In this document: in pieces, positions 2,431 through 43,365 of the stretch
Layout: each line of letters starts with the position of its first letter
Position numbering within the stretch: the first letter of the stretch is position 1
Origin: Litorivivens sp.
Lineage (GTDB): Bacteria > Pseudomonadota > Gammaproteobacteria > Pseudomonadales > Spongiibacteraceae
Length of the DNA stretch: 59,364 bases
Direction of reading: 5' to 3'
Assembly: GCA_041619575.1 (NCBI GenBank)
Contig: JBFKDP010000001.1
Span: forward strand, 1-59,364
The notes under the pieces: generated by a model
What the model was told of the DNA's origin: nothing
Databases searched by the model: none
What the model saw: only the letters and a program-made list of their open reading frames with translations
Translations under genes and position numbers: made by a program

Positions 2431-2480
2431 TTATGCTACCATTAGCTTCAAGCATGCAAGATGACTGCGAAGATAAGCGC

Positions 2481-5882: not shown

Positions 5883-5953
5883 GCGATTCCCCTGTCTACA
5901 TCTCAGCGCCGGCGGCTGGCAATTACCCGGCTCAACGGCTACAATTGAATATA

Positions 5954-5976
5954 TGTTATATCTTTATATCATTTGA
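5954..5976. promoter_or_regulatory. Putative operator motif TGTTATATCTTTATATCATTTGA
   Basis: 18 nt identical to 54399-54416 and 14 nt identical to 48645-48658; divergent promoter region. Confidence 0.65.
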
Positions 5977-6000
5977 TTCAACAGGCGTGTTTCCACCACC

Positions 6001-9676: not shown

Positions 9677-9682
9677 TCCTTG

Positions 9683-10351: not shown

Positions 10352-10361
10352 AGTTACCTCC

Positions 10362-13168: not shown

Positions 13169-13169
13169 A

Positions 13170-15406: not shown

Positions 15407-16841
15407 TAGCGCTCTCCACCTTTCCCGCAACGCCGATAATGCGCGTGCCACGGAAAAATTCGAAGGTTTCTACCACCCCTTCATCACCCAGACCGCTCAG
15501 GCCCCAGGCCGGACGGGGTGCCATCGGGTGAAGGTTCAGCATGCTCACCGCATTGATCTTGATATTGCCGGCACGAATACCGCTGGCTATCTTCCAGGCG
15601 TGTTGTTCTTCACCAAACACATACGCCGCCAGACCAAAGGGTGTGCCGTTGGCCTGCGCTATCGCCTCGGCATCGTCGGTAAAGGTATGCACGGTTGCAA
15701 CCGGGCCAAATATTTCTTCGCTGGCCTGTTCAGCACTTAAACCTGTTATCAGCGTCGGGGCAATAAAGTAGCCGTCCAGCGCGGGCAAGGCCGAGGCGCG
15801 CAAACACTCACCGCCCTGCGCTTCGTATTCTGCGACCGCCTTTTGAATCAGTGCATAATGGCCTTTGTGTACCACCGGGCCCATCGTGCTGGATTCGTCC
15901 ATGACATGGCCGAGCTTAATCTTTGCAAAGCGTTCGGTGATCGCTGACAGCAATGTTTCGGCTACAGATTGATGTACCAGCAAGCGCCCCAAGGCGCGAC
16001 ACCACTGGCCGTTCAAGGTCGTCATTCCGGCAATTACGCCATCGGCTGCCGCTTCAATATCGGCGTCTTCCAATATAACAATCGGGTTATTGCCGCCCAG
16101 CTCCAGCTGAGCCGGTTTGATATCTTTAGCACAGGCCGAAGCCACTGCGCGCCCCGCCTGTAAACCACCGGTAAACGACACGGCGGCAATGCGCGAATCT
16201 TCCACCAACGCGGCACCTGTCGCGCCATTGCCGTGCACCAGCTGGAAGACCCCTGCGGGCAAACCGGCCTCCACCAACGCCTCGGCAATCAGCTGACCGG
16301 ATTGCGGTGCCCACTCCGAAGGTTTAACAATTACCGGACAACCAGCGGCCAGCGCTGAGGCCAGTTTGTGGCAGGTAATTCCGGATGGCGCATTCCAGGG
16401 CGCAATGATCGCCGCTGGACCCAGCGGCAAGCGTTCAACCACCACATCGCCATGAGGGCCTTCAAAGGGCTGACGCAGGGGTGGGTTGCGCAACAGATTT
16501 GCGGCAGCGCGAAACGCGAGCACGCAAATCTGGGCGACCTGGGACGTTGTTTTCAAGAGTACGCCGGTGCAGATGGCGTCGGCCTCGGCAATTGCACTCA
16601 GGCGGGTGTTAATGGCGCCTGCAATGGCATCGAGGGCGGCCGCACGCTCGGAATTGGACAGTGCAGCCCAGTCACCTGCCTCATGGGCGGCATGGGCAGT
16701 CGCAATAGCGCGTTCAACCTGCGCAGCGTCGCTCGCCATTTGATAAAACAGCGGCTTGCCTTCGCTGGCGTGGTAGACCTCCGTCTCCAGCGTGATCGCA
16801 GGAGCCTGCCAGTCGTTGTCGATGTAATTCTTGAGTTCCAT
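15399..16841 (-). CDS. Aldehyde dehydrogenase, copy 2
   Basis: PWNAP, KPSE, FTGG, LELGGNN, GQWCRA, EEIFGPV; start chosen by AAGGAAG RBS. Confidence 0.92.
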   Translation of the reverse strand: MELKNYIDNDWQAPAITLETEVYHASEGKPLFYQMASDAAQVERAIATAHAAHEAGDWAALSNSERAAALDAIAGAINTRLSAIAEADAICTGVLLKTTSQVAQICVLAFRAAANLLRNPPLRQPFEGPHGDVVVERLPLGPAAIIAPWNAPSGITCHKLASALAAGCPVIVKPSEWAPQSGQLIAEALVEAGLPAGVFQLVHGNGATGAALVEDSRIAAVSFTGGLQAGRAVASACAKDIKPAQLELGGNNPIVILEDADIEAAADGVIAGMTTLNGQWCRALGRLLVHQSVAETLLSAITERFAKIKLGHVMDESSTMGPVVHKGHYALIQKAVAEYEAQGGECLRASALPALDGYFIAPTLITGLSAEQASEEIFGPVATVHTFTDDAEAIAQANGTPFGLAAYVFGEEQHAWKIASGIRAGNIKINAVSMLNLHPMAPRPAWGLSGLGDEGVVETFEFFRGTRIIGVAGKVESANG

Positions 16842-16864
16842 ATGGCTTCCTTGGGCGTCAGCCA

Positions 16865-18133
16865 TCAACCCTTACCAAAGGCGTTCTGTTCTTCACCTTC
16901 AATCACCAGACTGGCGGTATCCAGTCGGCCTTTTTCTGCAGGGAAAGCCTGTACCAGCCCCATCGCAAGGTCACGCAGCGCACGCGAATAAGGCGTGCTG
17001 AACATGGTCCCTGAGGTGCCCGCACACTTGAGTGCAGCGATGGCGACCTGAAAGCTGTGCTCGGCGATCTGGCCCTTACAGGTGCGCCAGAATTTAACCA
17101 CCTCTTCCTTGGATACCATCGGCGGCTCACTGCTTTCGATCTGAACCTGACGGCGCGCCCACAATAAAGCGGTCTGCAAGTTGGCGTACATCTCGCCAAT
17201 GATCTGCTGTTGATAGGGGCCAGTACCCACGGGCTTGCCGGTATCGGCAAATTTCTTGTCTTTCATCAGCTGCACAGCCGATTGGTAAGCGGCAACGGCG
17301 CCGCCCATATAGATCACAGACGCAGCCACCTGATTCCCCACAAAGCTGGAGCGACTCATCTGGCAGCTGCGGGCAAAGGCGCCAGGAATACCCAGAGCAT
17401 TTTCATCAGCAACAAAGACATCTTCCAGCACCAGCCCTTCGGTGGCGGTGCCGCGCATACCCATGGCATCCCATTCAATCCGGCCACGCGTGCCTTTGGC
17501 ATCGCGCTCTACGATAAAGGTGCTTAGCGCGCTGGCATCATTGATGCCTTCCAATGCCGCGGTCACCAGATACTGGTCGGCGACACCGGTGGCACAGCCA
17601 AACGACTTTTCACCGTTCAGGAGCCAGCCGCCGTCAACTTTCTTCGCCTGGGTAGTGATGGTGATCGCAGAGTGTTCGGATTTCACGGACTCACTGGCAT
17701 AGTTCGCCAGCCATTTGCTGTCGCGCCCCATGGTATAGAGCACTTTCTCGGCAAAGTCTTTCACCTGAGGTGCTTCATCATCGTTGAACAGCCCTTCTTT
17801 CAGTGCTGACAGGGCGAGCGTGCCGCGCGAGGCCGAGGTATTGTGAAAAAAGTAAGCCAGACCGGTAGACGGGCATACGGTACCAATGGCAAAACAGGCG
17901 GCTGCCCAGTCGCGCAGACCACCACCGAGACCACCGTATTCTCGTGGAACAACCAGACCCAACAATCCGGCGTCAGCCAGCAGGCGTACATTGTCTGGAT
18001 TAAATTCGCCCTGCTTGTCTGTCGCAGTTGCGCGCTCGCGCAGGGTGGGCAGGATACTTTCAACACGCTCGGCGCGCTCACGTTCCTCAGCGGTCATGTC
18101 TTCGATGAGGAGTTCGGAAATCATTTTGCTCAT
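16865..18133 (-). CDS. Acyl-CoA dehydrogenase-fold flavoprotein (possibly a flavin-dependent monooxygenase)
   Basis: VPREYGGLG, GWLLNGEKSF, WDAMGMRGT, RALRD. Confidence 0.8.
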   Translation of the reverse strand: MSKMISELLIEDMTAEERERAERVESILPTLRERATATDKQGEFNPDNVRLLADAGLLGLVVPREYGGLGGGLRDWAAACFAIGTVCPSTGLAYFFHNTSASRGTLALSALKEGLFNDDEAPQVKDFAEKVLYTMGRDSKWLANYASESVKSEHSAITITTQAKKVDGGWLLNGEKSFGCATGVADQYLVTAALEGINDASALSTFIVERDAKGTRGRIEWDAMGMRGTATEGLVLEDVFVADENALGIPGAFARSCQMSRSSFVGNQVAASVIYMGGAVAAYQSAVQLMKDKKFADTGKPVGTGPYQQQIIGEMYANLQTALLWARRQVQIESSEPPMVSKEEVVKFWRTCKGQIAEHSFQVAIAALKCAGTSGTMFSTPYSRALRDLAMGLVQAFPAEKGRLDTASLVIEGEEQNAFGKG

Positions 18134-18173
18134 GGAGGGTTCCTCTGAAACTTTTTTGGGCGGAGGATTCTCC

Positions 18174-18266
18174 TCTCACCCCAGCCCTCTCCCTGAGGGA
18201 GAGGGGGCGCTCAATTTAACTACGGAGTATTCTCCCTCTCCCTTTGGGAGAGGGCTGGGGTGAGGG
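18174..18266. repeat. REP-like double palindrome (CCCTCTCCC..GGGAGAGGG family)
   Basis: CTCACCCCAGCCCTCTCCC ... GGGAGAGGGCTGGGGTGAG outer inverted repeat with two inner hairpins. Confidence 0.8.
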
Positions 18267-18272
18267 TAGGTT

Positions 18273-19016
18273 TTACGCACTCACCTCACGCAGCGACGCA
18301 ATCTGCTTGTCCGCCGCGTCCTGTCCTACCAGCGGCGCTATCCGCTGCCATACCGGATCAACCTCGGCGTTGAAAATGGCAAATTTGTTGCGCTTATCGC
18401 GGGCCGCGAGCTCCTGCGGCGTAACATCTTCCAGTGCCTCACTGGAGATACCCTTTTCGACCAGAGCAAACCAGTGGTCCAGATAGGCATCAACCGGCTG
18501 CATAATCTTTTCAAAAGCCTCTGGCGTGGCGCGATTAGCGAGCATCCACGGTGACATGATGGCGTACTGACGCGGTGACAGATGCGCGGCTTCCAGACCT
18601 TCAATCTTGCGCGCGTCTTCGCATACCTCGGTCAGGGGTTGATACACCTCATTGAGATAATTCAGACGCGAGCCAATATCCACACGGGGTATCAAATCCA
18701 GGTGAAAAGCGTGGTGATCACCGGCCTGCACCGAATCGACCGTGTAGTGCGGCACCGCGCTGTCAGAGGGCATAAAAGCAAAAATCATATGCGAATCCAG
18801 CTGCATGGCAGGCACCACAATGCTGGACGTCAGCACCTGAAACAGCGGGCCACCGGTAAACTTGCGCATACCACCCACGCTGCCTTGGTGCATGGGCAGC
18901 TGGCTTTCCAGCGGTAGAAAGGGTCCGCCTTCGTCGTTCAACACTTCAGTCATGCCAAAGGTATCGACGATGCGATTGAGTACGTGGTCGTGCAAGGCTT
19001 TGGGTAAAGAAGTCAT
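18273..19016 (-). CDS. Divergent RCCR / ferredoxin-dependent bilin reductase-like protein (copy A)
   Basis: VPHYTVD..FHLDLIPRVD..YLNEVY, SPW, YLDHW, ARD..DP pattern shared with copies B and C. Confidence 0.6.
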   Translation of the reverse strand: MTSLPKALHDHVLNRIVDTFGMTEVLNDEGGPFLPLESQLPMHQGSVGGMRKFTGGPLFQVLTSSIVVPAMQLDSHMIFAFMPSDSAVPHYTVDSVQAGDHHAFHLDLIPRVDIGSRLNYLNEVYQPLTEVCEDARKIEGLEAAHLSPRQYAIMSPWMLANRATPEAFEKIMQPVDAYLDHWFALVEKGISSEALEDVTPQELAARDKRNKFAIFNAEVDPVWQRIAPLVGQDAADKQIASLREVSA

Positions 19017-19018
19017 GA

Positions 19019-20722
19019 TTAATCCTTGGTTGCCAGCAGGGGCTCAAGCAAGTGCCAGGGCCGGCCATCGATCAAATGGGTACGGTGAGAAACCACTTTG
19101 TTTTCAGCGTTTTTCGGATGCAGCACCAGCGGTGTCACACTGCGTGAAGCACCCGCACGGGTCAGCATGGGATAGGTCAGCACACCGTCAAACTGGCGGG
19201 TTTTCCATTCACCGAAAATCGTAAAATCTTCATGCAGGGCTGCGCCGAAACTGTTGCCCAAGGCGGAAGGCTGCATCGCGGCCAGCAGGTTCACCCGGTT
19301 TTCTGCAGCCCGCTCAATCAGGCCCGTGGTCAGCTCCCACGGCTCCAGCGGCATCAATGGCACACTCACCACATCCGCGCCCTGCATGGCGACCAACCGA
19401 AAGGCTTCGGGATAGATAGAGTCGTCGCTGCACATCAGGGCAAGACAACCAAACTGGGTTTTCACGACCTCAAAGCCGTCACTCAACACCGACCAGGCAA
19501 AACGCTTACTGAAATGCACCTGCCCTTGACTAGCGACCAAACCACTAGCACCAATTGCAACCGCGCAATGTTGCCTGCCGCCTGCAACGGGCAGCACCAG
19601 CGAGGTGGTGATCAGCGCATCGCCTGACACTTCGGCCAGTGCCGCGATCGCCGCTTCCGACTCTTTCACGGCGGTATCAGCACTTGCATCGGCAATACAA
19701 AACAACCCCGGCAGCGCGATCAAACGGGCGCCCCCGGATACCGCGTTTTTAACCGCGGCTTTGGCTTCTTCCAGCGCACCCGTGCCGTTGTTTTCCAGCT
19801 GAATAAGGGCAGCAGGTAAGTCTGCCTCAGCGGCAAATACCGGCGCTTCGAGTGATTCGGGGTTTTCACCCAGCGCTGAATAAAGCTCAGGGCGGCGACT
19901 GGAAAAAATATCCGTCCCGTCAGGGCGCTGCTTGTTACGCGCCTGCGCGACATCAATTTCAGCAAAGACGACTTCTTCTTCGCGGGTCTTGGCCATAGCC
20001 AGCACCGTGCCATCTGGCGCGACAATCTGACTCTCTCCCGCGCCGTTGAGAAACTCAACCGGAATATTGGTAGCCGCACTGATGCCATCCATCATGGCCT
20101 CTGGCACCAGCGGACCAACCTTGTTCGCCGCAACCACAAACACTTTGTTTTCTGCCGCGCGCACCGGGATATGCAAGGAGCCTTCATCCGGCGCAAAAGA
20201 GTTCAGACTGTTAAGCATGATATCGGCGCCTCGCAAGGCAAGGCAGCGAGGCGTTTCGTTGATCACGCCGTCCATACACATATACAGCCCGAGACGCCCC
20301 AGCTCCGTATCAATCACCGCGCCGGGCTCGGATGCACGCTCTAGAAAATCGTTCTCGTGGCCAATCAGCACCTGCTTGTCGCTCAGGCCAAGCAAGTCAC
20401 CCGCAGGTGAATAGAGAAGGTTGCTGCCACTGACTTTACCGCCCTCACGCTGCAGTGTGACACCGACCACAACAAAGGCTTCTATTTCCCGTGCTTTGGC
20501 TGCAATGGCTTGCAGGAAGTCACCCTCGATCGTCAAAGACACTCGGTAGCAGTGTTCCGCATCGTCATACCAGGACAGGTGATTACAGAATTCCGGCAAG
20601 ACAACGATGTCGGGGTTCTGCTCGCCAGCCTTGCCCAGTACCCGCAGGCAACTTTCAAGGTTGACGTCGATATCACTGCCCACATGAAACTGCGCGGCGG
20701 CGGCTTTTATACGTTGCTTCAC
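19019..20722 (-). CDS. Two-domain carbon-nitrogen hydrolase (nitrilase superfamily)
   Basis: N domain LPEF/K/CMD triad and RAAENKVF; C domain repeat RAAENRV with degenerate triad. Confidence 0.85.
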   Translation of the reverse strand: MKQRIKAAAAQFHVGSDIDVNLESCLRVLGKAGEQNPDIVVLPEFCNHLSWYDDAEHCYRVSLTIEGDFLQAIAAKAREIEAFVVVGVTLQREGGKVSGSNLLYSPAGDLLGLSDKQVLIGHENDFLERASEPGAVIDTELGRLGLYMCMDGVINETPRCLALRGADIMLNSLNSFAPDEGSLHIPVRAAENKVFVVAANKVGPLVPEAMMDGISAATNIPVEFLNGAGESQIVAPDGTVLAMAKTREEEVVFAEIDVAQARNKQRPDGTDIFSSRRPELYSALGENPESLEAPVFAAEADLPAALIQLENNGTGALEEAKAAVKNAVSGGARLIALPGLFCIADASADTAVKESEAAIAALAEVSGDALITTSLVLPVAGGRQHCAVAIGASGLVASQGQVHFSKRFAWSVLSDGFEVVKTQFGCLALMCSDDSIYPEAFRLVAMQGADVVSVPLMPLEPWELTTGLIERAAENRVNLLAAMQPSALGNSFGAALHEDFTIFGEWKTRQFDGVLTYPMLTRAGASRSVTPLVLHPKNAENKVVSHRTHLIDGRPWHLLEPLLATKD

Positions 20723-20775: not shown

Positions 20776-23421
20776 TTAAAAGTACGTGTATTTGACAGTC
20801 AGGCCGTAACTGCGGCGCGTTCCCATACCAACCATGTACTGATTGAACACGCCAATCACAAATGCGCTGGCCGGATAATTCTCGTCGGTAATGTTCTTGC
20901 CCCAGAAGCTAATATCCCAGTGATCATTCGGGCCAAGCGCATTCACTGACAAGTTCGCTACCGTGCGCGCCGGTACCCAGCCCAGATTAAGCGGCGTCAG
21001 GAATTGTTTGGACTGGTAGTTGGCATCCAGGCGACCCGTCAGCAACCAACCAGAATCAAAATCTTTCTGCACGTTGAAACCGATCGACGCCTGCTCTTTT
21101 GAACCCCGGGCCAGCTGGTTGCCACCAACTTCACCATCAGTAGGACAGGTAACACCATCACAGCCGACACCCGTAGACGCGTCGCTACGACCGGGAGAAT
21201 ATTTAACGCCGTCATCGTAGCTGGCGTCGTTATAGGTGAGACCGACATCTACCGAAAAATTGCGGTTAAAGCGGTAAGCCGCTTCAAGCTCAATACCAAT
21301 ACTTGTCGCATCACCGATGTTGGTGACTACATCCGATGAGGACAGCGAAGCCTCCTCGGGCGGCACAGAGCCTTGCAGACCGGTCCAATCTATATAAAAC
21401 AGCGCCCCGTTAAGCGTCAGCGCAGCATTAAGTAGCTTGTTTTTGCTGCCAACTTCATAGGTCCAGTTGGTTGCCTCATCGTATACGAGCTGACTTTCAC
21501 TTTCGGCATTGTTGAAGCCGCCCGTTTTCAACCCTTTGGCAACAGAGAAGTACACCATCTGATCATCATTCAGGCTCCAGTTGACGATCGCTCGTGGCGT
21601 GAAATAGAGAAACTGCTCGTCGTCTTCTTCCACGATAATAGAGCTGGTCACGGTATCAGCCAGGCCCGGCACAACCGGATCTTCCGGCAGGCTGTAGCTT
21701 ACTGACTGCCCAAAAGCGAGACCGAAAGGGTCTGCATGACGGAAGACATATTTGTCCTCATGGGTCAGACGCCCCTCAAAGGTCACATCGATAGTGTCAG
21801 TCACCAGATACGACGTCGAGAAGAACAGAGCCATGATCTCATCTTCAAAACTGGTGTCTTCCAGACGGGTTTTCGCATGCTGGCGAACTACCTGATCGTA
21901 GACGATCCCTGTGGTCAGGCGACCGGGATCCGGCACAGCCGACGATGGCGTAGAAAGCGGCTCATAACAGTTCTGGCGTTGCTCCTCGGTGAACGGCGAA
22001 CACACATCACTGATGAAAACGGTGGAGTGCTCACGGTCTTCGGTCTTGGAATAATAGGCACCTAGGCTGGCACGGAAACGGTCACCACTATCAAAGTCAA
22101 AGCGCAACTCATGAGAAAAGGATTCCAGTACCGAGTTCGGGCGGCCACTGAACGTATTCGAGTACTTGTAACCGTTCGGATCCTGGTTATTGGCAGCATT
22201 CAGAACAAAGTCTGCGGCAATACCGCGGCCCACCATAGGGTCTTCACCACCGGGGCCACCGGTTGAATAGGTCTCGTGATCCGCAAAACCAAACAGGTAA
22301 TGGGCACTCCAGCTTTCGTTCAATTCATAGCCGGCCGTAAATGTAACCACTTCGGTAGAGGCCACCTGACCGATTCCACGCGGGTCGATCAGGATACCAT
22401 CCAGCGTACGCGGACCTTCGGCGCCGGCTGCTGTTGTAGGCAATTCACCGCACCAGGCAGAAAAACCGGAGTGGGCTGCTGTGGGTGAGGGGTTACCGAT
22501 ATCGTTGACCGTACGCCAGTTACAGTTCAAGTCCAACTGATTGTCCAGGCGCAGACCAAAACGGGCTGCGTTAACGCCGGAGATACTGTAGCCAGCTCCG
22601 GTTTCTTTCTCTGCGTTGTTTTTGTAGTAACTGGTACGCAACATCAACCTGTCGGTAGGCTCATACGCGAGCATCAGGCTGTAGATCTCGTCATCCCAGC
22701 CACCAAGGTTTCCGGTTGTGCTCGGACCAGATGGATCGGCATCGGCCATTGGGTGATCATTTTTGGTGTGACCATCATACTGAGAGAACCCAAAGGTGGC
22801 TTTCGCCAGCAGCCGGCCTTCCAGTGCGATGGGGCCATTGAAGCTGGCTTTGATATCCTGGCGCTCATTGTCACCCACGGTAACGGCGACATACGCTTCC
22901 GGCTCTGCCTTTGGCTTGGCGGTAATATAGTTAACCGCACCGGCAAAGGCGTTGCGCCCAAACAGTGCATTCTGCGGGCCCTTGATTACCTCTACCCGCT
23001 CCATATCAATCATGCCCAGGTTCAGCATACTCTGACGCTGCAGATACACACCGTCGATAAAGAAGGATACGTTCTGAATGCGCGAGGTCGTGAACTGCTG
23101 AGCCAGACCACGGATAACCGCATTGCCGTGGTTGCCGCCTGTAATAAAGCTCTCAAAAGTGAAGCCGGGTGTGGCCGCCGCAATATCATCCAGACCGGTA
23201 AAACCGCGACGCTCAAGAGAATCAGAGGTAAAAGGTGTTACCGAGACCGGAATGTCCTGGATGGACTCTTCGCGCTTACGGGCGGTAACCACGATCTCCT
23301 CCAAAGACTTGTCCACGCGCGTTTTCTTCGCTGGCCCCTGCTGCGCTTGAGCCGAGACAGCCATCATTTGTAGACCGACTATACCGGAGAGCAGACCGAC
23401 CGATTTCTTCGTCAAATTCAT
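20776..23421 (-). CDS. TonB-dependent outer-membrane receptor
   Basis: Signal peptide, LEEIVVTARKREESIQD TonB box, ERVEVIKGPQNALFG, C-terminal F. Confidence 0.95.
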   Translation of the reverse strand: MNLTKKSVGLLSGIVGLQMMAVSAQAQQGPAKKTRVDKSLEEIVVTARKREESIQDIPVSVTPFTSDSLERRGFTGLDDIAAATPGFTFESFITGGNHGNAVIRGLAQQFTTSRIQNVSFFIDGVYLQRQSMLNLGMIDMERVEVIKGPQNALFGRNAFAGAVNYITAKPKAEPEAYVAVTVGDNERQDIKASFNGPIALEGRLLAKATFGFSQYDGHTKNDHPMADADPSGPSTTGNLGGWDDEIYSLMLAYEPTDRLMLRTSYYKNNAEKETGAGYSISGVNAARFGLRLDNQLDLNCNWRTVNDIGNPSPTAAHSGFSAWCGELPTTAAGAEGPRTLDGILIDPRGIGQVASTEVVTFTAGYELNESWSAHYLFGFADHETYSTGGPGGEDPMVGRGIAADFVLNAANNQDPNGYKYSNTFSGRPNSVLESFSHELRFDFDSGDRFRASLGAYYSKTEDREHSTVFISDVCSPFTEEQRQNCYEPLSTPSSAVPDPGRLTTGIVYDQVVRQHAKTRLEDTSFEDEIMALFFSTSYLVTDTIDVTFEGRLTHEDKYVFRHADPFGLAFGQSVSYSLPEDPVVPGLADTVTSSIIVEEDDEQFLYFTPRAIVNWSLNDDQMVYFSVAKGLKTGGFNNAESESQLVYDEATNWTYEVGSKNKLLNAALTLNGALFYIDWTGLQGSVPPEEASLSSSDVVTNIGDATSIGIELEAAYRFNRNFSVDVGLTYNDASYDDGVKYSPGRSDASTGVGCDGVTCPTDGEVGGNQLARGSKEQASIGFNVQKDFDSGWLLTGRLDANYQSKQFLTPLNLGWVPARTVANLSVNALGPNDHWDISFWGKNITDENYPASAFVIGVFNQYMVGMGTRRSYGLTVKYTYF

Positions 23422-23541
23422 AGTATCTTCCCGCACGAGATGCTTTTGAAAGTTAAATAAACTGGCCTCAGCCAAACTCCGATGCCCTCCCCCCGGCACC
23501 CATGATGAAACCAGCAGCAAAATACCTGCCAAATCACCATT

Positions 23542-27024: not shown

Positions 27025-27801
27025 TCAGAATTCTTCCAGCAAGCGCCCCTTTCCGGTGATCTTGTCGTTAATACCGCAGGCGCGCAGGGCATGCCAGATA
27101 GTCGCAACGTTAATCGGCAGCATCGGCTTTTCCAACCAGTGCTCCAGGGTCGGAAACAGATCAACCGTGGACAGGTTTGTTCCACACTGAACGATGGCTT
27201 CCACATCATCGCCATCGGCTTTCTTGACCGCTTCGATCACATCTTTGATGGGGGTTTCTGCTATCGCAGTGGCAGAGGCGCAATTCAAGCCCACAACATG
27301 CTTCACTTCGTAACCAATTTCATCAAAGAATTGCCGCACATTGTCATCACCCACGGGCGGGTAAGGCGTGATAACTGAGATTTTCTTGACGCCAAAGTTG
27401 TCCAGCGCCATGCGCGTTGCACCAGCGCCGGTGGTCATCCCCAGGTCGCCAATCTGATCCTGAATATTTTTTTCAAATTCGACGTTGCCGGCCATACCGC
27501 CCCAAAAGGTTTCCGCTGACATACCCAGCATCAAGTGAGAAATCTTCGCTGTCAGTACATTCTCAATCGCCGGTGTCATATCATCGCGCATCAAGTCAAG
27601 GAAGCGCTCGAACACCGTATTGGGATCATCACCGGTCGCCTCCCCTTCTTCCGCCCAGTTGCGCAGTCGAATCAGAAAACGCGAAGGGTGCCAGGTAACC
27701 CCTTCCAGGCCAAACTTTTGCAGGTCGTACTCCACCCCGGTGTTCGTTGAAGGTATAAGTACACCAATCTGGGCGCGACGGGCGATTTGATAGTTTTGCA
27801 T
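27025..27801 (-). CDS. Asp/Glu racemase-maleate isomerase superfamily protein, copy 1
   Basis: GVLIPSTNTGVE, ITPY, DGDDVEAIVQCGTNL, WHALR. Confidence 0.85.
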   Translation of the reverse strand: MQNYQIARRAQIGVLIPSTNTGVEYDLQKFGLEGVTWHPSRFLIRLRNWAEEGEATGDDPNTVFERFLDLMRDDMTPAIENVLTAKISHLMLGMSAETFWGGMAGNVEFEKNIQDQIGDLGMTTGAGATRMALDNFGVKKISVITPYPPVGDDNVRQFFDEIGYEVKHVVGLNCASATAIAETPIKDVIEAVKKADGDDVEAIVQCGTNLSTVDLFPTLEHWLEKPMLPINVATIWHALRACGINDKITGKGRLLEEF

Positions 27802-27885: not shown

Positions 27886-28698
27886 TTAGGCGATATCGGC
27901 GAACAGGTCGCGCTTGTTAAATCCTGCCGTCATAAAACGACGAAAGGCTTTTCCGTTGGTGAGCCACTCTACCCGGGCACCATTTTTTCGGGTCTTCAGC
28001 ACCCCATCCACCAGCCAGGGCGTCACCGTTTCTACTTTGTCGCCCAAAATATTGAAAATCTTTTTTGCCTTTTCCCATTCGGGTGTAGCGGTGTCGTAGT
28101 CACCGATCAACAGGTCGGTCACCACGATACCGGGGCTAAGTACGTTCACCTGAACGTTTGACTCTGCCATATCTTTGCGCAAGGCCTTCGCCAGATAATT
28201 CACGGCTCGCTTGGTCGCGCCGTAGGCAGCCATGCCCGGCTGTGCGGCGCCGTTACTGCCAAAGCCTTCCATCACCCAAAACTGACCCGCGCCCTGTTTC
28301 TCCATACCTGCCAGCACAACATTGGCGGCATACAAAACACCATTCAGGTTAATCGCCGTGATACGCGCCAGCTCTTCAGCAGATTGCTGGGTGACGGGTT
28401 TGCGCGGCAGGCTGATACCCGCATTATTGATCCAGACATCCACCGTGCCACACTGGGCTTTGGCAAACTCCCAAAGCGACTTCAGTTGCTCGTGCTCGCT
28501 GATATCACAGGCATGACCTACAACTTTATCTGGCCCGTAACTCGCGGCAAGCTCGGAAACGACTTGATCGACTGCCGGCTGACGAGTCGCGCTGATCACC
28601 ACCTTGCAACCCTGCTTTAGAAAATTCTCGGCCAGACCACGGCCTATGCCGCGCGTACTACCCGTAATAACAATGCTTTTGTTCATTGCAGTCTCCAA
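27886..28698 (-). CDS. SDR, chlorophyll(ide) b reductase NOL/NYC1-like, copy 1
   Basis: ITGSTRGIG, DVWINNAG, GFGSNG..AAYGATKR, LSPGIVVTDLL, KKIFNIL, WLTNGKA. Confidence 0.75.
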   Translation of the reverse strand: METAMNKSIVITGSTRGIGRGLAENFLKQGCKVVISATRQPAVDQVVSELAASYGPDKVVGHACDISEHEQLKSLWEFAKAQCGTVDVWINNAGISLPRKPVTQQSAEELARITAINLNGVLYAANVVLAGMEKQGAGQFWVMEGFGSNGAAQPGMAAYGATKRAVNYLAKALRKDMAESNVQVNVLSPGIVVTDLLIGDYDTATPEWEKAKKIFNILGDKVETVTPWLVDGVLKTRKNGARVEWLTNGKAFRRFMTAGFNKRDLFADIA

Positions 28699-29525: not shown

Positions 29526-30677
29526 TCAGGAGACGGCTTCCTGCTCACCCACAGCCAGACTGGCCACCGGAGCTACCCTGGGAATCTCATCCAGCACCCA
29601 TTTCAGGTCCGGTCGCTCGCGGCGAATCGGCGAGGGAATCGCAAACACCTTGCGCCCTTCGTACTGCTTCACCGTGTAAGAATCGATCTGGTTTCCCTTT
29701 TCGATCAGTTTACGGCGCGACTGGCGGAACGAGCTCATAAACTTGTCGTCGGCAACCGACAACTCGTTGGCCAGATTTTCCGGCAGGTAGTTCGGCGAGG
29801 CGCGCTCTATCACTTCGGCGTCTTCACGGAAGACTTTGCGCAGACGCTTGCGCGAGCCCGCATCAAACAGTTTGATCTTGAAGAACGTTCGCAGCTGCGT
29901 GGCAAAGGTTCGGGTAGTGTGTTCATCGACCGGCGTATTGCAATCGAACATCAGTATGCTCATCCACTTATTCAGATTGATCTGAATGCGCACCACATAG
30001 CCAGACAGGTGGTAGCCGGGGATGGTTTCAGTGGGCTGGCGATCTTTGCGGATAAAACGGCGGATACCCATATCGCCCTTCAACTGGGGCGGGTACTGAA
30101 TATTCCAGGACATCCCATTCAGTTCGTCTTTTTCCACTTTAACAATCTTGTTTTCGCCAGCGGTATCAGGAGTACCAAATACCGGGTGAACAAAGGACGC
30201 GTGGGCCAGATCAATACCGTTTTCTATTACACGGGCCGCTTCGGCCTTCCACACCCACTCATCGGTAATGGCTCGCCAGTTTGGATCATCGTATTCAGGA
30301 AAGGGGGGAATCGACGGGCGCTCTTCTTCGGGTAAATCACCGAGGAAGACCCAGATCATGCCGTAACGTTCTTCAGTGGGATAGGCATCAACACGCGCCC
30401 GGTCCGGAATACGAAAATCGCGGCCTTCAGACGGAATAAACTGCACCTTGCCGTCGCCGTCGAACTGCCAGCCGTGGTAGGGGCAGGCGACATTGCCGTC
30501 AATACACTTGCCGCCAGAAAGGGAGCCGCCACGGTGAATACAGACATCACTCAGGCAATTGGCTTTACCTTCTGAATCGCGGAACAGGACGAAATTCTGC
30601 CCCAACATCTTCACCTTGACCGGCTTGTCCTTAAGAGTTTCTGACCACTCAGCCACGTACCAGAGATTGATTAACAC
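29526..30677 (-). CDS. Rieske non-heme iron oxygenase (PAO/CAO/VanA-type alpha subunit)
   Basis: CIH-x16-CPYH Rieske motif; ENGIDLAHASFVH iron site; ED motif; GTG start after GGAGG. Confidence 0.92.
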   Translation of the reverse strand: MLINLWYVAEWSETLKDKPVKVKMLGQNFVLFRDSEGKANCLSDVCIHRGGSLSGGKCIDGNVACPYHGWQFDGDGKVQFIPSEGRDFRIPDRARVDAYPTEERYGMIWVFLGDLPEEERPSIPPFPEYDDPNWRAITDEWVWKAEAARVIENGIDLAHASFVHPVFGTPDTAGENKIVKVEKDELNGMSWNIQYPPQLKGDMGIRRFIRKDRQPTETIPGYHLSGYVVRIQINLNKWMSILMFDCNTPVDEHTTRTFATQLRTFFKIKLFDAGSRKRLRKVFREDAEVIERASPNYLPENLANELSVADDKFMSSFRQSRRKLIEKGNQIDSYTVKQYEGRKVFAIPSPIRRERPDLKWVLDEIPRVAPVASLAVGEQEAVS

Positions 30678-30752
30678 TGCCTTTCCTCCACATTGTTCGA
30701 GGGCCAGAAGCGCGATCAGGTGCTTCTGTGCCAAGGTTATTTATACTAATAG

Positions 30753-30923
30753 CATATCTTTATATCTTTTTAAATGAAATTCGGCTGATTTGGAGCGCAG
30801 AGCGATGAAATATTATCCATCTGCGCCGGCAAAACGTGTCCACTACCCCTACTATAGTGGCTACAGCAAAAAAAGCGGATTGCACCACGCCATCACAATA
30901 TGTATTATTCATATAACATTATA
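30753..30923. promoter_or_regulatory. Divergent promoter with two motif copies (ATATCTTTATATCTTT; ATATAACATTATA)
   Basis: 30911-30923 is identical to 40808-40820. Confidence 0.55.
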
Positions 30924-30948
30924 CCCAATACAACACAGGCACTCAGCC

Positions 30949-31746
30949 ATGGCACATATCACAAAATCCATTGATGAACTGGTTGCTGAACAGGGCGGCG
31001 TCGATCGTCAGGACACTTTCGAACAACTCTGGGCCATTACGACCGAACTGTTTGACAAGGTTAAAGCCCGTTTCGATCTGGCCCAAGACGCCTGCTCCGT
31101 AGGCGACTACAGCGGTAAGGGCGGCGCTCAGGGCTTCCTTTCAGCCTGGGCGGGCCCGGAGATTGACTGGCTGATCTACAGCTGGACCGGCAACCCCAAG
31201 GCCAGCTTTACCAATATGCACCTCACGATCAATCTCGGCGCCCAGTACGATGTTCCCCACTTCGGCTTTGCACTGGGCACCACTCCCGATCTGTTCTTCT
31301 ATCAGGACTATATGCCGCGTAAGGATTTGTGGACCCACCACGATTACGCTGAAAAGTACTACGGCGGCGAGGTGAATGACACTTATATCGAGTGGGAACG
31401 CAGCGAGCGCTTCAAGCACTTTATCAGCCGTCATATGTATACCCGTGTAGCGCAGTCGCCCTGCTCCCTGGCCTACGGCGGCCCGGTCTGCGCTGAAGGG
31501 ATCGACGACCTGAGAAAAGTGGCTCACGCCCAGCTGGACCGCTGGATCGCCTGGGTTGATGCCGCCGAATTGCAACCGGAAAGCACCCGTGCCGCTCAAG
31601 CTGAGCGCGACCTGCTGATTCGACGCACCATCACTGAAGGGGATCCGGCCAATATCGTGGTGGAAAACCTGTTTGGCAAAGAGCTGTGCGATCAGCTCGT
31701 GGCATCCCTCTGGGGCCGCGACCGTACCTTGCCCCGGCCTGAGTAA
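30949..31746 (+). CDS. RCCR / ferredoxin-dependent bilin reductase-like protein (copy B)
   Basis: IDWLIYSW, DVPHF, DYMPRKDL..DYAEKYY, QSP, LDRW, ERD..DP..LFG resemble plant RCCR motifs as recalled. Confidence 0.75.
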   Translation: MAHITKSIDELVAEQGGVDRQDTFEQLWAITTELFDKVKARFDLAQDACSVGDYSGKGGAQGFLSAWAGPEIDWLIYSWTGNPKASFTNMHLTINLGAQYDVPHFGFALGTTPDLFFYQDYMPRKDLWTHHDYAEKYYGGEVNDTYIEWERSERFKHFISRHMYTRVAQSPCSLAYGGPVCAEGIDDLRKVAHAQLDRWIAWVDAAELQPESTRAAQAERDLLIRRTITEGDPANIVVENLFGKELCDQLVASLWGRDRTLPRPE

Positions 31747-31771: not shown

Positions 31772-32749
31772 ATGACCGACGTTCGCGCTTTCTTTACCGC
31801 CGCCACCGTGCCGGGTGAACCTGAACCCTGGAACACCTTGCAGCTCAAGGTGTACTACCCCAGCGCCTTCGGGGACAGTGCGGACGAGCGCAACATGGGC
31901 TTTATTCCCGCAGCCAGACCGGACCAGCCCTACCCGGTCGTCATCTTTATGCCTGGCTCCAACTGCCACCCGGAAGTGTATGGCTGGCTGGCAAAAGGTC
32001 TGTGTGAGCTCGGCCTTGTCTGCATCACCTTCAGCTGGATCAAGGAAGATATGCCCGGCTTTGTCTCACTAAGTCCGGGCTTTAATCTGCGCTATTTAAC
32101 CCCCGACAGTTTTGGCAAGGCGCCGTCCTGTTCTTCTCTTCCGACACTGCTGCAGGCGGTGGAAAACCTGAACACCAATGGCTTACTCGCCGGCTTGCTG
32201 GATACCAACAAGGTAATATTGGGCGGCCATTCGGCCGGCGGCAATGCCGTACTGCTCAACAGCAACCGCGAATGGTTCCCGCAAGTGATTGGCGGATTCT
32301 CGTATGCAGCGCATACCGGAGCCTCGACCCAGATCGGGTTTCCGGAAGACACGCTGCTGCCAGTTTCTGGAAACGTGCCCATGTTGATTATGGGCGGTGA
32401 GAGAGACGGCGTTATAGCCGCCAGCGCCAACCGCTACGGCGACAGCGAAGACAGCACACCGACCGAGCGCATCGGCAGAACCTTTGATGAAGCGCTGGAG
32501 AGCGAGCGCAGCGACTGCCACTTGCTACTGATCGAAGGCGCCAATCATTTCTGCTTTGCCCATCCCTACGATGGCAGCACCGGACGCCCCTTTCTGGACT
32601 GGCCCGCACAGGGCAACGAGGACGAACTGCGGGGACTGATGCTCGACGCTATCAAAATTTTTATCGGGGCCTGTGTGGGCCAGGGCGAACACAGCGCCCT
32701 GAATACGCTGGCCGATCACCCACACGTTTCGCGCTACGCGTGCAAATAA
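31772..32749 (+). CDS. Chlorophyllase-like alpha/beta hydrolase
   Basis: YPVVIFMPG, DTNKVILGGHSAGG, later Asp (RDG) and His (GANHF). Confidence 0.65.
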   Translation: MTDVRAFFTAATVPGEPEPWNTLQLKVYYPSAFGDSADERNMGFIPAARPDQPYPVVIFMPGSNCHPEVYGWLAKGLCELGLVCITFSWIKEDMPGFVSLSPGFNLRYLTPDSFGKAPSCSSLPTLLQAVENLNTNGLLAGLLDTNKVILGGHSAGGNAVLLNSNREWFPQVIGGFSYAAHTGASTQIGFPEDTLLPVSGNVPMLIMGGERDGVIAASANRYGDSEDSTPTERIGRTFDEALESERSDCHLLLIEGANHFCFAHPYDGSTGRPFLDWPAQGNEDELRGLMLDAIKIFIGACVGQGEHSALNTLADHPHVSRYACK

Positions 32750-32767: not shown

Positions 32768-33736
32768 ATGAGCGACAAGCAACCCAGCAAATTCCAGAAA
32801 AACATTGCCGGCGACTGGCATGGCTACCCGTCCATCTTCACGCCGGAAGGCACCCATGTCGGCTACAACAAGGTGACCCGCGCCAGCGAATTCAAGGACG
32901 GTCGCACCACCTACTGGATGGATGTCGCGCTGGATGCCGCCGGCGAGCTGGCCAACCGCTTTGAAACCGGCCGCTTTGAATTTGGTGTTATCGACTCAGA
33001 CAAAGACCGTATCTACACCGGCCCGGACTTTATCGGCTCTGGTCGCCCCTTCGGCCCCTTTGTCGACTCAAATTATTTTTCACCGGGCTGGAACGTCAAC
33101 CTGCGCACCATCAACCATGTGCTGGATGATCGCGGCATTCAGGTGTACTCCTCGCAGATGTTTGAAGGAGACACCATGATTGCGGCCTTTAACGGCCTGT
33201 ACATTCGCACCTTCGACCACGACACCAACCCAGAGACCCAGAAGCTGGTTGCCGACTTTCTTGAAAACGAGAAAAAAGTCGGCAAGAAGACCTTCTACTT
33301 GCCGCAGAAACACTCCGGCACCTGGACTGGCGAAATGGATGTATACAACACGGATCAGGAAAAGGTTGGTGTTAACAAGGTTACTATCGACTATATGCCG
33401 ATCAACCTGAACCGCGCCACCATGACCGTAAAAATCGAAGGCGTGATCAATCGTGAGTTCAGTTTTGAGCGCACCCGCAACGGCAACCACCATCAGTTCC
33501 ATGGTCCTGACGTATTCGGTAACGCCATCGGGTATGGCCGCTACCACTACGCCCTGCACCACTTTATGGGCGAAGCTTTCAAGTTCACTACCCGCGACGT
33601 GATGCTGGACGACAAGTACAGCCTCTGCTCCATGTGGCAGTTCCATGAATCACATCATGAGAAATACATGACGTTCGGCGTGCTGGATTGGGAAGAGAAA
33701 GACTTCGTCCTGAAGCCCAATTACATTGAAGGTTAA
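32768..33736 (+). CDS. Hypothetical protein with tandem beta-barrel (calycin-like) repeat
   Basis: Internal duplication GDWHG..GYNKVT..YTGPDFIG.G versus GTWTG..GVNKVT..FHGPDVFG. Confidence 0.7.
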   Translation: MSDKQPSKFQKNIAGDWHGYPSIFTPEGTHVGYNKVTRASEFKDGRTTYWMDVALDAAGELANRFETGRFEFGVIDSDKDRIYTGPDFIGSGRPFGPFVDSNYFSPGWNVNLRTINHVLDDRGIQVYSSQMFEGDTMIAAFNGLYIRTFDHDTNPETQKLVADFLENEKKVGKKTFYLPQKHSGTWTGEMDVYNTDQEKVGVNKVTIDYMPINLNRATMTVKIEGVINREFSFERTRNGNHHQFHGPDVFGNAIGYGRYHYALHHFMGEAFKFTTRDVMLDDKYSLCSMWQFHESHHEKYMTFGVLDWEEKDFVLKPNYIEG

Positions 33737-33760: not shown

Positions 33761-33785
33761 GCCCCCGCTCTGCGGGGGCTTTTTT
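33761..33785 (+). terminator. Rho-independent terminator
   Basis: GCCCCCGC/GCGGGGGC stem plus T6. Confidence 0.8.
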
Positions 33786-40867: not shown

Positions 40868-41722
40868 ATGAAAGTACTGATTCTCGGCATGGGCCACGCA
40901 GGCAAAGCCATCGCCCAGCGTTTGCGCGCCAGCGGTCACCAGATTGTGGGCACAACTACCACTCCCGGTAAAGTTGACGAGCTGAAAACACTCGCCGATG
41001 AGGTCGCGGTGCTCAAGGGCAGCGAGACCGAAAACGTGATGGCGGCGGCAAAAGGTTGCGACGCCATCATTGCTACCGTTGCGCCCAACGTCAAAAATAC
41101 CCGCACCAAGGAAGAGCGCGAGAGCCAGTACCACGAGGTCCTTGAAAAGTCGCTGGCCAGCGCCGCCAAGGCCTGCGAACGCGTGATTTTTCTGTCGTCC
41201 TTCTCTGTCTATGGCGACGGCGGTGAGGGCACAGATCCCATTACCGAAGAAACACCAACCAGCAACCACGAAGAGCCTTCGTCCAAATATTATCAAGCCG
41301 CCGAGCGCAATGCGCTGAGTGTTAGCGGTGGCTGCGTGCTGCGCCTGCCCGACATTCACGGTGCCCCCGGCGATATGACCTTCACCCAGCGGGTAAAACT
41401 GGCCCACGACTACTTTGGTGGCAAGGCTTTGTTCGGCGCCGATGCGCCGCTGTACACCATTCATTTTGAAGATGTCGTAAACGCCGCCGTGCACGCGCTG
41501 GAAAAAGGTCTGACCGGCATCTACAACGTCTGCGACAACGACAACCTGCCGCCCACCAACCAGCAAATTTTTGACGCCATCTGCGACAAGGAAGGCTGGA
41601 CGCGATTGGAGTTTCTCAATCAAATCAAGGCACCAAACCGCAAAATCTCCGCCGACAAACTTTACGCCACTGGCTACAAGGTGCAACACGAAGACCCCAA
41701 CGCCGCACTGCTGGAGGGCTAG
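40868..41722 (+). CDS. NAD(P)-dependent epimerase/dehydratase-like (extended/atypical SDR)
   Basis: LGMGHAG, FLSSFSVYG, LRL..IHG, IHFED, YNV. Confidence 0.8.
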   Translation: MKVLILGMGHAGKAIAQRLRASGHQIVGTTTTPGKVDELKTLADEVAVLKGSETENVMAAAKGCDAIIATVAPNVKNTRTKEERESQYHEVLEKSLASAAKACERVIFLSSFSVYGDGGEGTDPITEETPTSNHEEPSSKYYQAAERNALSVSGGCVLRLPDIHGAPGDMTFTQRVKLAHDYFGGKALFGADAPLYTIHFEDVVNAAVHALEKGLTGIYNVCDNDNLPPTNQQIFDAICDKEGWTRLEFLNQIKAPNRKISADKLYATGYKVQHEDPNAALLEG

Positions 41723-41725
41723 ATC

Positions 41726-42523
41726 ATGGCCAATGTTGTCATCACTGGCAGTACCAAAGGCATCGGTCGCGGTCTCGCCGCAGAGTTTGCCCGGCTCGGC
41801 CACAAGGTGATGATCGCCGGTCGCAGCCAGCAGGCAATAGACGAAGCCATCGCGACCATTGGATCACAAGCAGGAACGGTGACCGGTCGCCCCTGCGAGG
41901 TATCGGAAAAAGTTCAGGTGCAAGCCCTTTGGGATGCTGCCGTTAGCGAATTTGGCTGCGTCGACATCTGGATCAACAACGCCGGCTTGGCCCGCACGGT
42001 TTGGCCGATTCTGGAAACGCCTGACGAAGAGATTCAGGCGATGGTGACCACCAATATGTTTGGTACCATTTTTGGTTCCAAAGTGGCGGTCACCGGTATG
42101 AAAGCCCAGGGCCACGGCAAACTGTTCAATATGCTTGGCGGCGGCAGTGATGGTGAATTCTTTCCCGGCATCGGCATATACGGCACCACCAAGCGCGGCT
42201 TGAATTACTTTACCGATGCGCTGATTAAGGAGAACAAAGACACACCTTTGGTGATCGGCAAGATTCGTCCGGGCATGGTGATTACCGAAGCCGTTGTGCG
42301 CGAGGCCAAAGCCGATCTCGAAAACTTTAACAAAAACCGCAAGACCATGAACAATCTCTGCGACACGGTCGAGACTGTCTCACCCTATCTTGTGGACAAC
42401 ATTCTCAAGACCGAAAAATCCGGCACCAAGATCCGCTGGCTCACCGGCGGCAAGATTGCCAAACGCATGATGTTGAGTCGCTTTCGCAGCCAACCCGACA
42501 AATTCGAAGCCTTTGGCTTGTAA
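41726..42523 (+). CDS. SDR, NOL/NYC1-like, copy 2
   Basis: NVVITGSTKGIG, DIWINNAG, FNMLGGGSDG, YGTTKR, PGMVIT, IRWLTG. Confidence 0.75.
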   Translation: MANVVITGSTKGIGRGLAAEFARLGHKVMIAGRSQQAIDEAIATIGSQAGTVTGRPCEVSEKVQVQALWDAAVSEFGCVDIWINNAGLARTVWPILETPDEEIQAMVTTNMFGTIFGSKVAVTGMKAQGHGKLFNMLGGGSDGEFFPGIGIYGTTKRGLNYFTDALIKENKDTPLVIGKIRPGMVITEAVVREAKADLENFNKNRKTMNNLCDTVETVSPYLVDNILKTEKSGTKIRWLTGGKIAKRMMLSRFRSQPDKFEAFGL

Positions 42524-42543: not shown

Positions 42544-43365
42544 TTGAGCACCAAAACCGCCGATACCAAAACCATCGACCAGTTTCTGTCTGAAAATCCC
42601 AACGTGGATGTCAGCAAGGCCTGGGAGCGCAGCTGGAATATCCTGACGGATATTAAAGACAAAATCGCCGCGCGCTTTCCCAATATTGAACTAGACCCCA
42701 CCTGCGAAGGCCGCGAGTATTACACCTCACCCAACGGCGAGTTTGAAGGCTCGTATCAGTCCTGGACCGGTGAGGGTGTGGAATGGCTGGTCAGCTCCTG
42801 GCTTGGCAACCGCAAAGCCAGCATCCTGGATATGAATGCAACAGCTTTTCTTGGGCAGGAAACCGACGTACCGCATTTTATTATGGTCTTCGGCACGATT
42901 CCGAAACTGTTTTTCTATTTTGATCTGGTGCCTAGAAAAGATCTGCGCACCAACCCCGAGTATCTGGAAAAGTACTACGGCGGTGAAGCCAACGAGGATT
43001 TTCTCGCCCTGCGCGGCCACGAGAACTTCCAGTGGTCAGTAAGCCACGGCACCTACATGCGCGCCCTGCTGTCTCCCTCGGCCCTTAGCCTGAGCGCTGA
43101 TTTGAACGACGCCAATATCGACGTACTGGAAGAATACGCCTACAAATTCCTGAACCGCTGGCTGGGCTGGCTGGATAACGCCACTCCCACCCCGGCGAGT
43201 GAGCGTGTTGCCCAGCAGCAGTATGACCATACTGTCCGCCGCCTGGGCTATGAACTTGATCCTATGAACAAGCTCGCCGCGCAGGTGTTTGGCGAAGATC
43301 AAGTTGAGCGCATGATCCAGATGCGACTCGGCGACGAGCAAATGAAGAAGTCTCGCAAATACTAA
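42544..43365 (+). CDS. RCCR / ferredoxin-dependent bilin reductase-like protein (copy C)
   Basis: WLVSSW, TDVPHF, DLVPRKDLRTNPEYLEKYY, LSPSA, DP..VFG; TTG start after GAGGA. Confidence 0.8.
   Translation: MSTKTADTKTIDQFLSENPNVDVSKAWERSWNILTDIKDKIAARFPNIELDPTCEGREYYTSPNGEFEGSYQSWTGEGVEWLVSSWLGNRKASILDMNATAFLGQETDVPHFIMVFGTIPKLFFYFDLVPRKDLRTNPEYLEKYYGGEANEDFLALRGHENFQWSVSHGTYMRALLSPSALSLSADLNDANIDVLEEYAYKFLNRWLGWLDNATPTPASERVAQQQYDHTVRRLGYELDPMNKLAAQVFGEDQVERMIQMRLGDEQMKKSRKY

Follow-up and report, generated by a model that had tools for sequence, protein, structure and literature searches.

A Rieske oxygenase gene and an RCCR gene form a conserved pair

Which enzyme could open the chlorophyll macrocycle in a marine heterotrophic bacterium is the question raised by two adjoining genes of Litorivivens sp. 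(Gammaproteobacteria; Spongiibacteraceae). They lie in a stretch of 59,364 nucleotides (assembly GCA_041619575.1, contig JBFKDP010000001.1, positions 1 to 59,364 of the forward strand; hereafter the window), where the gene of a Rieske non-heme iron oxygenase points away from a gene of the family of red chlorophyll catabolite reductase (RCCR). The original prediction, made from the sequence alone, had read them as a counterpart of the plant pair of pheophorbide a oxygenase (PAO) and RCCR, transcribed divergently from one promoter. We found that the Rieske/RCCR feature is real and conserved and that the Rieske protein is a separate family and not a member of PAO, though the pair probably works like PAO/RCCR. 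The elements of the pair are as follows.

29526..30677, minus strand: Rieske non-heme iron oxygenase of its own family, 383 aa, no PaO domain; candidate ring-opening oxygenase
30754..30764, plus strand: operator-like motif ATAWCWTTATR, copy 1 (Rieske side)
30913..30923, plus strand: operator-like motif ATAWCWTTATR, copy 2 (RCCR side)
30949..31746, plus strand: RCCR1, RCC-reductase family, 265 aa, with His91, Ala108 (Glu in plant RCCR) and invariant Asp120 and Asp232

Both genes exist and point apart, as had been predicted, but the predicted span was that of the longest open reading frames (ORFs), and the starts of these frames (30734 and 30790) were discarded because the homologues start further in. 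Alignment of homologues set the Rieske start at a GTG at 30677 and the RCCR1 start at an ATG at 30949, with an intergenic region of 271 bp (30678-30948), not 55 bp, between them. The metal-binding motifs are intact, as noted earlier: the ligands of the Rieske cluster (C46-x-H48...C65-x-x-H68) and the iron-site motif E152-N153-x2-D156-x2-H159-x4-H164 are invariant in 30 aligned homologues, and the iron-binding D286 is at least 90% conserved in the same alignment. The RCCR-like label was equally borne out, RCCR1 scoring 45.4 bits with the RCC_reductase profile of Pfam against a cut-off of 24.9. The shared motif does occur twice in the gap, at 30754 and 30913; the claim of one promoter fared less well, since a sigma-70 scan of the gap gave no site and a pair of divergent promoters would account for the two spaced operators no less well than one. 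The closest named relatives are Litorivivens (92-99% identity), and the pair with its neighbors is carried by the cultured strains Litorivivens lipolytica CECT 8654 and Zhongshania borealis JCM 17304.

A functional link between the two genes is supported by their co-occurrence in family, order, and metagenome samples. In the family sample RCCR was present in 15 of 40 genomes and the Rieske gene in 10; all 11 Rieske copies of these 10 genomes are divergent to an RCCR match within about 1 kb, the five RCCR-only genomes are 61-83% complete, and of the 25 near-complete genomes, four have RCCR and it is these four that also have the Rieske gene. RCCR and the Rieske family each occurred in 10 of 401 genomes of the order sample, the identical 10 from five families, with Rieske scored on at most four candidates per genome; the Rieske matches of G116 and G350 in this sample are 35-40% paralogues only. 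From metagenomes we analyzed the best 80 of 321 confirmed RCCR loci, 39 of which measure 9 kb or more. Among these 39 loci, 31 contain the double-barrel gene described below, 30 the Rieske gene (at least 35% identity; one more at 34%), 25 a third RCCR-fold gene, and 21 a carbon-nitrogen hydrolase gene. One Chloroflexota locus (L011) has RCCR, Rieske, barrel, and third RCCR-fold gene in one run. In the class sample the Rieske family was found in 3 of 351 genomes, namely G000, G763 (RCCR on another contig), and G437, and the third RCCR-fold gene only in G000 among the 350 scored. No RCCR match was found in 72,556 plasmid records. Outside the family the layout of the pair varies from head-to-head to a single run or a distance of kilobases, and thus the linkage is conserved while the geometry is not. 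A system of two genes was not borne out, as the conserved unit is larger than the pair: roughly 30 genes recur, reshuffled, around it in other genomes, and the pair is the core of an island of ~55 kb.

Some further observations concern these loci. Contigs C31, C48, C166, and C270 of G000 (L152, L052, L153, L154) carry a second, diverged copy of much of the island with 51-92% protein identity and the same motif; at the DNA level it reaches no more than 79% identity to the relatives compared, and it could represent either a genuine second island or a relative that was binned together with the genome (4.7% contamination). A protein of ~210 aa with no Pfam match (L052:13196-13837, L012:9119-9748) lies beside SDR1, Rieske, or RCCR in 24 loci and is absent from the window copy. 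Operons of the Chloroflexota type (L011:6642-9967, L089) have a DUF3891 gene and proteins with no Pfam match upstream of RCCR, in 11-18 loci. In the low-GC loci L127, L130, and L131 the genes of RCCR, carbon-nitrogen hydrolase, and aldehyde dehydrogenase are consecutive, with no Rieske gene, an arrangement which is possibly a minimal bilin-processing unit in cyanobacteria.

The Rieske oxygenase represents a family of its own

Pfam assigned the Rieske and VanA_C domains to the oxygenase, the latter at 73 bits and common to nearly all relatives scanned. A borderline PaO match was seen in one of the 62 scanned relatives, and that protein lies outside the island Rieske clade. The C-terminal CxxC, presumably a feature of plant PAO, had not been visible in the original prediction and is indeed absent from the translation and from the homologue alignment. 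The KshA_C score of the protein was 23.7 bits as compared to 101-246 bits for the genome's own KshA-type genes (at least seven of KshA_C type). Foldseek matched it to oxygenases of the VanA/DdmC/NdmA/SxtT-GxtA type with a template modeling score of about 0.7 and E 8e-28, at 24-27% identity.

A profile search with the Rieske protein over 1.84 billion representatives returned, among the best 150 matches listed, a bacterial clade followed by cyanobacterial proteins (e.g. Synechococcus PCC 7502) together with long green-algal proteins. We built a quick tree of 102 rows, from which a motif filter removed five (three Rieske proteins of the genome and two algal ones), and a careful tree of 54 chosen rows. 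Island, cyanobacterial, and chlorophyte Rieske proteins formed one clade in the quick tree and one 36-row clade with support of 97/95 in the careful tree, leaving outside four cyanobacterial PaO-family proteins, five KshA-type proteins, VanA, and HpxD. The KshA-type proteins made a separate clade (100/100 in the 54-row tree), and so did the four PaO-family proteins, one of which was checked with Pfam. As these four proxies are the PaO side of the trees, which include no plant PAO, CAO, or TIC55, the PaO-family test rests on proxies. Approximately unbiased (AU) tests under LG+G4 without mixture, whose groups follow the hypotheses of the original prediction and which were run after the trees had been seen, rejected the grouping of the six closest island Rieske proteins with the PaO proteins (p 1.7e-5) or with the KshA-type proteins (p 0.006).

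Orthology to PAO was therefore rejected on the absent PaO domain, the absent CxxC, and the tree placement (cyanobacterial proxies only), and membership of KshA on the low KshA_C score, the separate clade, and the AU test. VanA was rejected as well, since the single annotated VanA (a long branch of about 28% identity) fell outside the clade and no VanB-type reductase is a neighbor. ‘PAO-like’ thus does not hold as a family name; in the phylogeny that had been proposed as a check, nesting in KshA or beside the one VanA was not seen, and neither was membership of PAO. The expectation of a distinct lineage proved right, the Rieske protein forming its own family with cyanobacterial and chlorophyte proteins.

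Three proteins of the island have the RCCR fold

Two further proteins of the window accompany RCCR1.

42544..43365, plus strand: RCCR2, another protein of the RCC-reductase family (39% identity with RCCR1), 3′ of the epimerase-like and SDR genes
18273..19016, minus strand: third, divergent protein of the RCCR/bilin-reductase fold, with invariant Asp94 in the column of the plant RCCR glutamate

A 33-sequence profile of RCCR1 matched the Arabidopsis RCCR structures of the PDB at E 6e-21 to 9e-21 and HY2 at 6e-5. RCCR2 scored 57 bits with the RCC_reductase profile; the third protein was recognized by Pfam at 4e-5 and by hhalign at 98.9%, with weak PDB matches to RCCR (E 0.04). D232 of RCCR1 is invariant in 33 of 33 rows and matches the C-terminal pocket aspartate of plant RCCR and tomato HY2, a column that we take to be that of Arabidopsis Asp291, with its presumed role, and of HY2 Asp256. 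His91 of RCCR1 lies 17 residues before Ala108, which is the spacing of His88 and Asp105 in PcyA. The third protein, besides Asp94, has a near-invariant His76 and an invariant Asp220. That the three active sites differ may mean that each protein performs a reduction of its own, or that they form a heteromer.

A repeated operator-like motif marks the island

The motif ATAWCWTTATR has eight copies in the window, all intergenic, as against 0.10 expected from shuffles, a test that is partly circular because the pattern came from the same window; besides the two of the gap, they lie at 2398, 2406, 5958, 12531, 23554, and 40810. The second-copy contigs played no part in deriving the pattern, and their 50.6 kb hold six exact copies compared with 12 in the other 3.98 Mb. 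Both gap copies align in nine of nine orthologous intergenic regions, and in a weight-matrix scan of the genome the 16 best matches were all on island contigs. Weaker matches on contigs C20, C68, and C351 adjoin unrelated genes with no electron partner among them; contig C351 of G000 also carries (L151:2015-4256) a CBASS-type anti-phage pair of a DncV-like nucleotidyltransferase and an HNH-SAVED effector. The clusters of other genomes have 0 to 9 copies each (G119 nine in 100 kb, G312 and L012 none). The shared motif suggests that the island is commonly regulated, and one gene could supply the regulator.

11690..12475, minus strand: GntR/HutC-type regulator, candidate reader of the motif, with motif copy 12531 upstream

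This gene travels with the island, and its product may bind the repeated motif.

Other genes of the island

The remaining features of the window that are considered below are listed here.

213..6933, no single strand: two CoA-transferase/HMG-CoA-lyase-type pairs and a LeuCD-type hydratase, with motif copies 2398, 2406, and 5958
7803..11564, minus strand: FAD monooxygenase (PnpA/HspB-like), isochorismatase-family amidase, two PuuE-like hydrolases
12575..20722, minus strand: run of genes for the carbon-nitrogen hydrolase, third RCCR-fold protein, acyl-CoA-dehydrogenase-type flavin oxygenase, two aldehyde dehydrogenases, alpha/beta hydrolase, and isochorismatase-family amidase
20776..23532, minus strand: TonB-dependent receptor (longest ORF), with motif copy 23554 between it and a divergent MFS unit
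27025..27801, minus strand: maleate-isomerase/arylmalonate-decarboxylase family protein 1
27886..28698, minus strand: SDR1, downstream of the Rieske gene
31772..32749, plus strand: alpha/beta-hydrolase-like protein that travels with the pair; no Pfam match for the copy of the window; the homologue of L011 matches Abhydrolase_5 weakly
32768..33736, plus strand: double beta-barrel of DUF3598/BFA1 fold, predicted to bind pigment; commonest RCCR neighbor
33761..33779, plus strand: terminator-like hairpin after the RCCR1-hydrolase-barrel run (consensus match only)
40868..42523, plus strand: epimerase-like gene and SDR2, co-transcribed with RCCR2, behind motif copy 40810
48715..49473, plus strand: maleate-isomerase/arylmalonate-decarboxylase family protein 2
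51007..52044, minus strand: chlorophyllase-family hydrolase; Pfam 42 bits (cut-off 26), sole PDB match the chlorophyllase 8FJD (E 0.001)
52041..53021, minus strand: alpha/beta hydrolase adjoining the chlorophyllase-like gene

In total the window has two flavin oxygenases, two isochorismatase-family amidases, and two maleate-isomerase-like proteins of these families. The barrel protein was modeled with a mean predicted local distance difference score of 92.5 as a DUF3598/BFA1 double barrel, and it may bind a pigment. SDR1, and perhaps SDR2, may resemble the chlorophyll b reductase NOL/NYC1; no PDB match was obtained at 1e-25. The OYE (34508-36562), SnoaL, and TetR genes of the window are not conserved with the island, and the OYE, a FadH/OYE flavoenzyme inserted in the island, resembles bilirubin reductase below the threshold of the profile (396 bits, 750 required). 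An RND efflux pair (54463-58733), behind a weaker motif copy at 54396 and beside the island only in the closest relative, could export phototoxic intermediates. An apparently interrupted reading frame lies on the minus strand at 6934-7802, between HMGL2 and PuuE1 and below the ORF cut-off. Related GC-rich palindromic repeats are found between genes at 18170-18265, 27830-27865, 29470-29510, 43370-43460, and 49520-49780, and a longer inverted-repeat element at about 49500-49780.

A proposed route from chlorophyll, weighed against its alternatives

The island very probably serves the catabolism of tetrapyrroles. This half of the earlier proposal is upheld by RCCR, the third RCCR-fold protein, the chlorophyllase-family gene, and the barrel, while the opening of the pheophorbide ring is something we infer only. 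The substrate is likely to be derived from chlorophyll. As to the whole, the balance tips slightly toward heterotrophic chlorophyll catabolism with the island Rieske protein as an analogue of PAO, and we lean a little toward the Rieske protein itself performing the ring opening, as a non-orthologous analogue of the plant enzyme. We infer every step of the route from family assignments. The TonB receptor and MFS transporters would import a chlorin or its breakdown products, and the chlorophyllase-family protein with the neighboring hydrolases would strip phytol and methyl esters, magnesium being lost non-enzymatically or by an unrecognized enzyme. The Rieske protein would then oxygenate a meso bridge to give a red bilin, which the double-barrel protein would hold, and the three RCCR-fold proteins, with their differing active-site residues, would reduce different bonds or substrates. 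Pyrrole rings yield imides of the substituted maleimide type, and the aldehyde dehydrogenases, flavin oxygenases, and carbon-nitrogen hydrolase may cut the bilin into such pyrrole-sized imides. PuuE-like and isochorismatase-family hydrolases and maleate-isomerase-like proteins would process the substituted maleamates and maleates, and the LeuCD-type hydratase and CoA-transferase/lyase pairs, by cleavage of an alkylmalyl-CoA, would lead to pyruvate and an acyl-CoA.

A number of observations weigh against this reading. No Pfam match of the Rieske protein to the PaO domain (PF08417) was obtained at E<=0.01, and all four chlorophyll-metabolizing plant Rieske proteins carry that domain according to the accessible part of PMC6898599. 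The solved relatives of the Rieske protein, ~25% identical (GxtA/SxtT, NdmA, DdmC), are small-molecule hydroxylases and demethylases. Dispersed Rieske paralogues (five copies in G763, four in G116, three in G350) suggest several reactions within the family; one of the G763 copies adjoins PuuE-like, isochorismatase, and DUF4437 genes (L157). G437 has a Rieske-family paralogue and no RCCR, four low-GC loci and three others have RCCR without a Rieske gene within the DNA examined, and of the 11 further genomes or loci compared, only 4 have a chlorophyllase-like gene close to the pair. The co-occurrence counts are inflated and not independent, because the genomes are kin and transfers are shared. 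A crude motif test yielded neither a ferredoxin nor an oxygenase reductase within the island or repeatedly near it, and a search for the SGR dechelatase gave no match, nor did its control. The column of the plant pocket glutamate, which we take to be Glu154 of Arabidopsis with a catalytic role, holds Ala108 in RCCR1 and Val in RCCR2 (Asn in HY2). On this last point, loss of the pocket acid need not abolish activity, because Arabidopsis HY2 is active with Asn133 in the column of PcyA Asp105 (PMC13446030, accessible part).

The alternative that survives best, although we consider it rather unlikely, is that the island takes tetrapyrroles that are already open, such as algal red chlorophyll catabolite (RCC), phycobilins, biliverdin, or photo-oxidized chlorophyll, and that the Rieske protein acts as a tailoring hydroxylase, or cuts a methine bridge at a later stage, and is closer in its role to TIC55 than to PAO. 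Linear bilins are suggested by the three proteins of bilin-reductase fold together with the barrel, the solved structures closest to the Rieske protein are those of hydroxylases, and the fruitless SGR search agrees with it as far as its equally fruitless control allows; the accessible part of PMC9306834 states that TIC55 hydroxylates the primary fluorescent chlorophyll catabolite and that green algae excrete RCC. However, the chlorophyllase-family gene implies phytylated, closed substrates, and among the oxygenases it is the Rieske protein that is most tightly linked to RCCR. Nor did the 86%-complete genome yield another candidate for ring opening, since no heme oxygenase or PaO-domain gene was found there by searches whose controls matched (Synechococcus for PaO).

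Ring opening and reduction of another macrocycle (heme or protoporphyrin, bacteriochlorophyll, chlorophyll c) by the same logic appears improbable to us. Sediment lineages and non-photic ones, with several GC contents, are among the hosts, the active-site residues of RCCR are unlike those of the plant enzyme, and the Rieske paralogue expansions could serve several pigments; yet the reductases are much nearer to RCCR than to the reductases of heme-derived bilins (E 6e-21 vs 6e-5), and the island has a chlorophyllase-family gene. That a non-tetrapyrrole N-heterocycle or aromatic is degraded by repurposed RCCR-fold proteins is very improbable, for although the lower enzymes recall routes of the nicotinate or nicotine type (the HspB/PnpA match, the maleate-isomerase-like and isochorismatase families), the Rieske protein has a VanA_C domain, and RCCR1 and RCCR2 are without the pocket glutamate, all characterized relatives of the RCCR fold act on tetrapyrroles according to the accessible parts of PMC10151467 and PMC13446030, and that three such proteins should share one regulon with a chlorophyllase-family gene by chance is unlikely.

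Relation to known systems

Like the plant PAO/RCCR system, the island couples a Rieske mononuclear-iron oxygenase with a true RCCR-family protein and a chlorophyllase-family hydrolase. It differs in that its oxygenase is from another family without the PaO domain or C-terminal CxxC, in that it has three RCCR-fold proteins among which the pocket glutamate is shifted, and in that it adds uptake, a regulator, and a lower pathway that would use the carbon and nitrogen rather than store the catabolites. The PaO-domain genes of amoebae are a different case (PMC6898599, accessible part). With the homotrimeric VanA/DdmC/NdmA/SxtT-GxtA oxygenases the island Rieske protein shares fold, metal motifs, and VanA_C domain, and it is set apart from them by the low identity given above, by the absence of an adjacent VanB-type reductase, and by the position of VanA and HpxD outside its clade. 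KshA steroid 9-alpha-hydroxylases are alike in Rieske oxygenase architecture, unlike in clade. RCCR homologues of cyanobacteria (Nostoc/Anabaena) have long been known (PMC2716323, accessible part). They are of the RCCR family, and the three low-GC loci mentioned above, whose cyanobacterial origin is suggested by GC and context, continue with two families of the island; unlike in the island, no Rieske gene stands beside RCCR there.

The general idea is already present in a preprint (Aliyu et al. 2026, bioRxiv 10.64898/2026.03.19.712979), which predicts PAO/RCCR/CLH/PPH-like genes in several hundred prokaryotic species and an ‘SH-RCCR-type’ pathway, mutually exclusive with SGR, in heterotrophic Actinomycetota and Pseudomonadota, with the top matches lying in a region of about 11 kb of Shewanella acanthi. 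Experimentally it goes no further than pheophytin and pheophorbide, not to ring opening, and unlike our account its main text has no lower pathway, regulator motif, third RCCR-fold or barrel protein, or family placement of the oxygenase; its SH-PAO could belong to the family of the island Rieske protein. In the literature surveyed, which covered few subscription papers, we came across no description of a bacterial enzyme that opens or mineralizes the chlorophyll ring; the lower pathway, the motif, and the third RCCR-fold gene likewise went unmentioned there, as did the chlorophyte link. To the general idea our analysis adds the placement of the oxygenase in a family, the regulon, a proposed lower pathway, and the clade with algal members.

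Green-algal relatives and significance

The closest eukaryotic relatives of the island Rieske protein are unnamed green-algal proteins, including one of Auxenochlorella, an alga that excretes ring-opened chlorophyll. A search with one algal protein retrieved an unnamed Rieske family spread over the chlorophytes, with members in Chlorella variabilis and an Auxenochlorella hybrid, and among the 120 matches listed of 346, many of them unnamed, there was no land-plant name. The algal proteins (P0274, P0351, P0519, and relatives) have long N-terminal extensions and range from prasinophytes to Chlamydomonadales and Trebouxiophyceae. According to the accessible part of PMC9306834, RCCR is apparently absent from chlorophytes and the activity of the chlorophyte PAO-like gene is unconfirmed. 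We put forward, as a tentative and somewhat doubtful proposal, that the island holds an entire bacterial pathway by which chlorophyll is converted to central metabolites, and that this begins with a second, independently recruited family of ring-opening Rieske oxygenases, whose pan-chlorophyte members (Chlamydomonas, Chlorella, Auxenochlorella, prasinophytes) make the excreted red catabolites.

About a gigatonne of chlorophyll turns over yearly (Aliyu et al. 2026). For its breakdown by heterotrophic bacteria the island offers candidates for the genes of most steps, its operator can be used to test induction, and Litorivivens lipolytica and Zhongshania borealis are named as cultured hosts. The genes of RCCR, Rieske, barrel, and third RCCR-fold protein offer a marker set for environmental surveys, and the unnamed green-algal clade is a concrete candidate for the unconfirmed ring-opening enzyme of algae.

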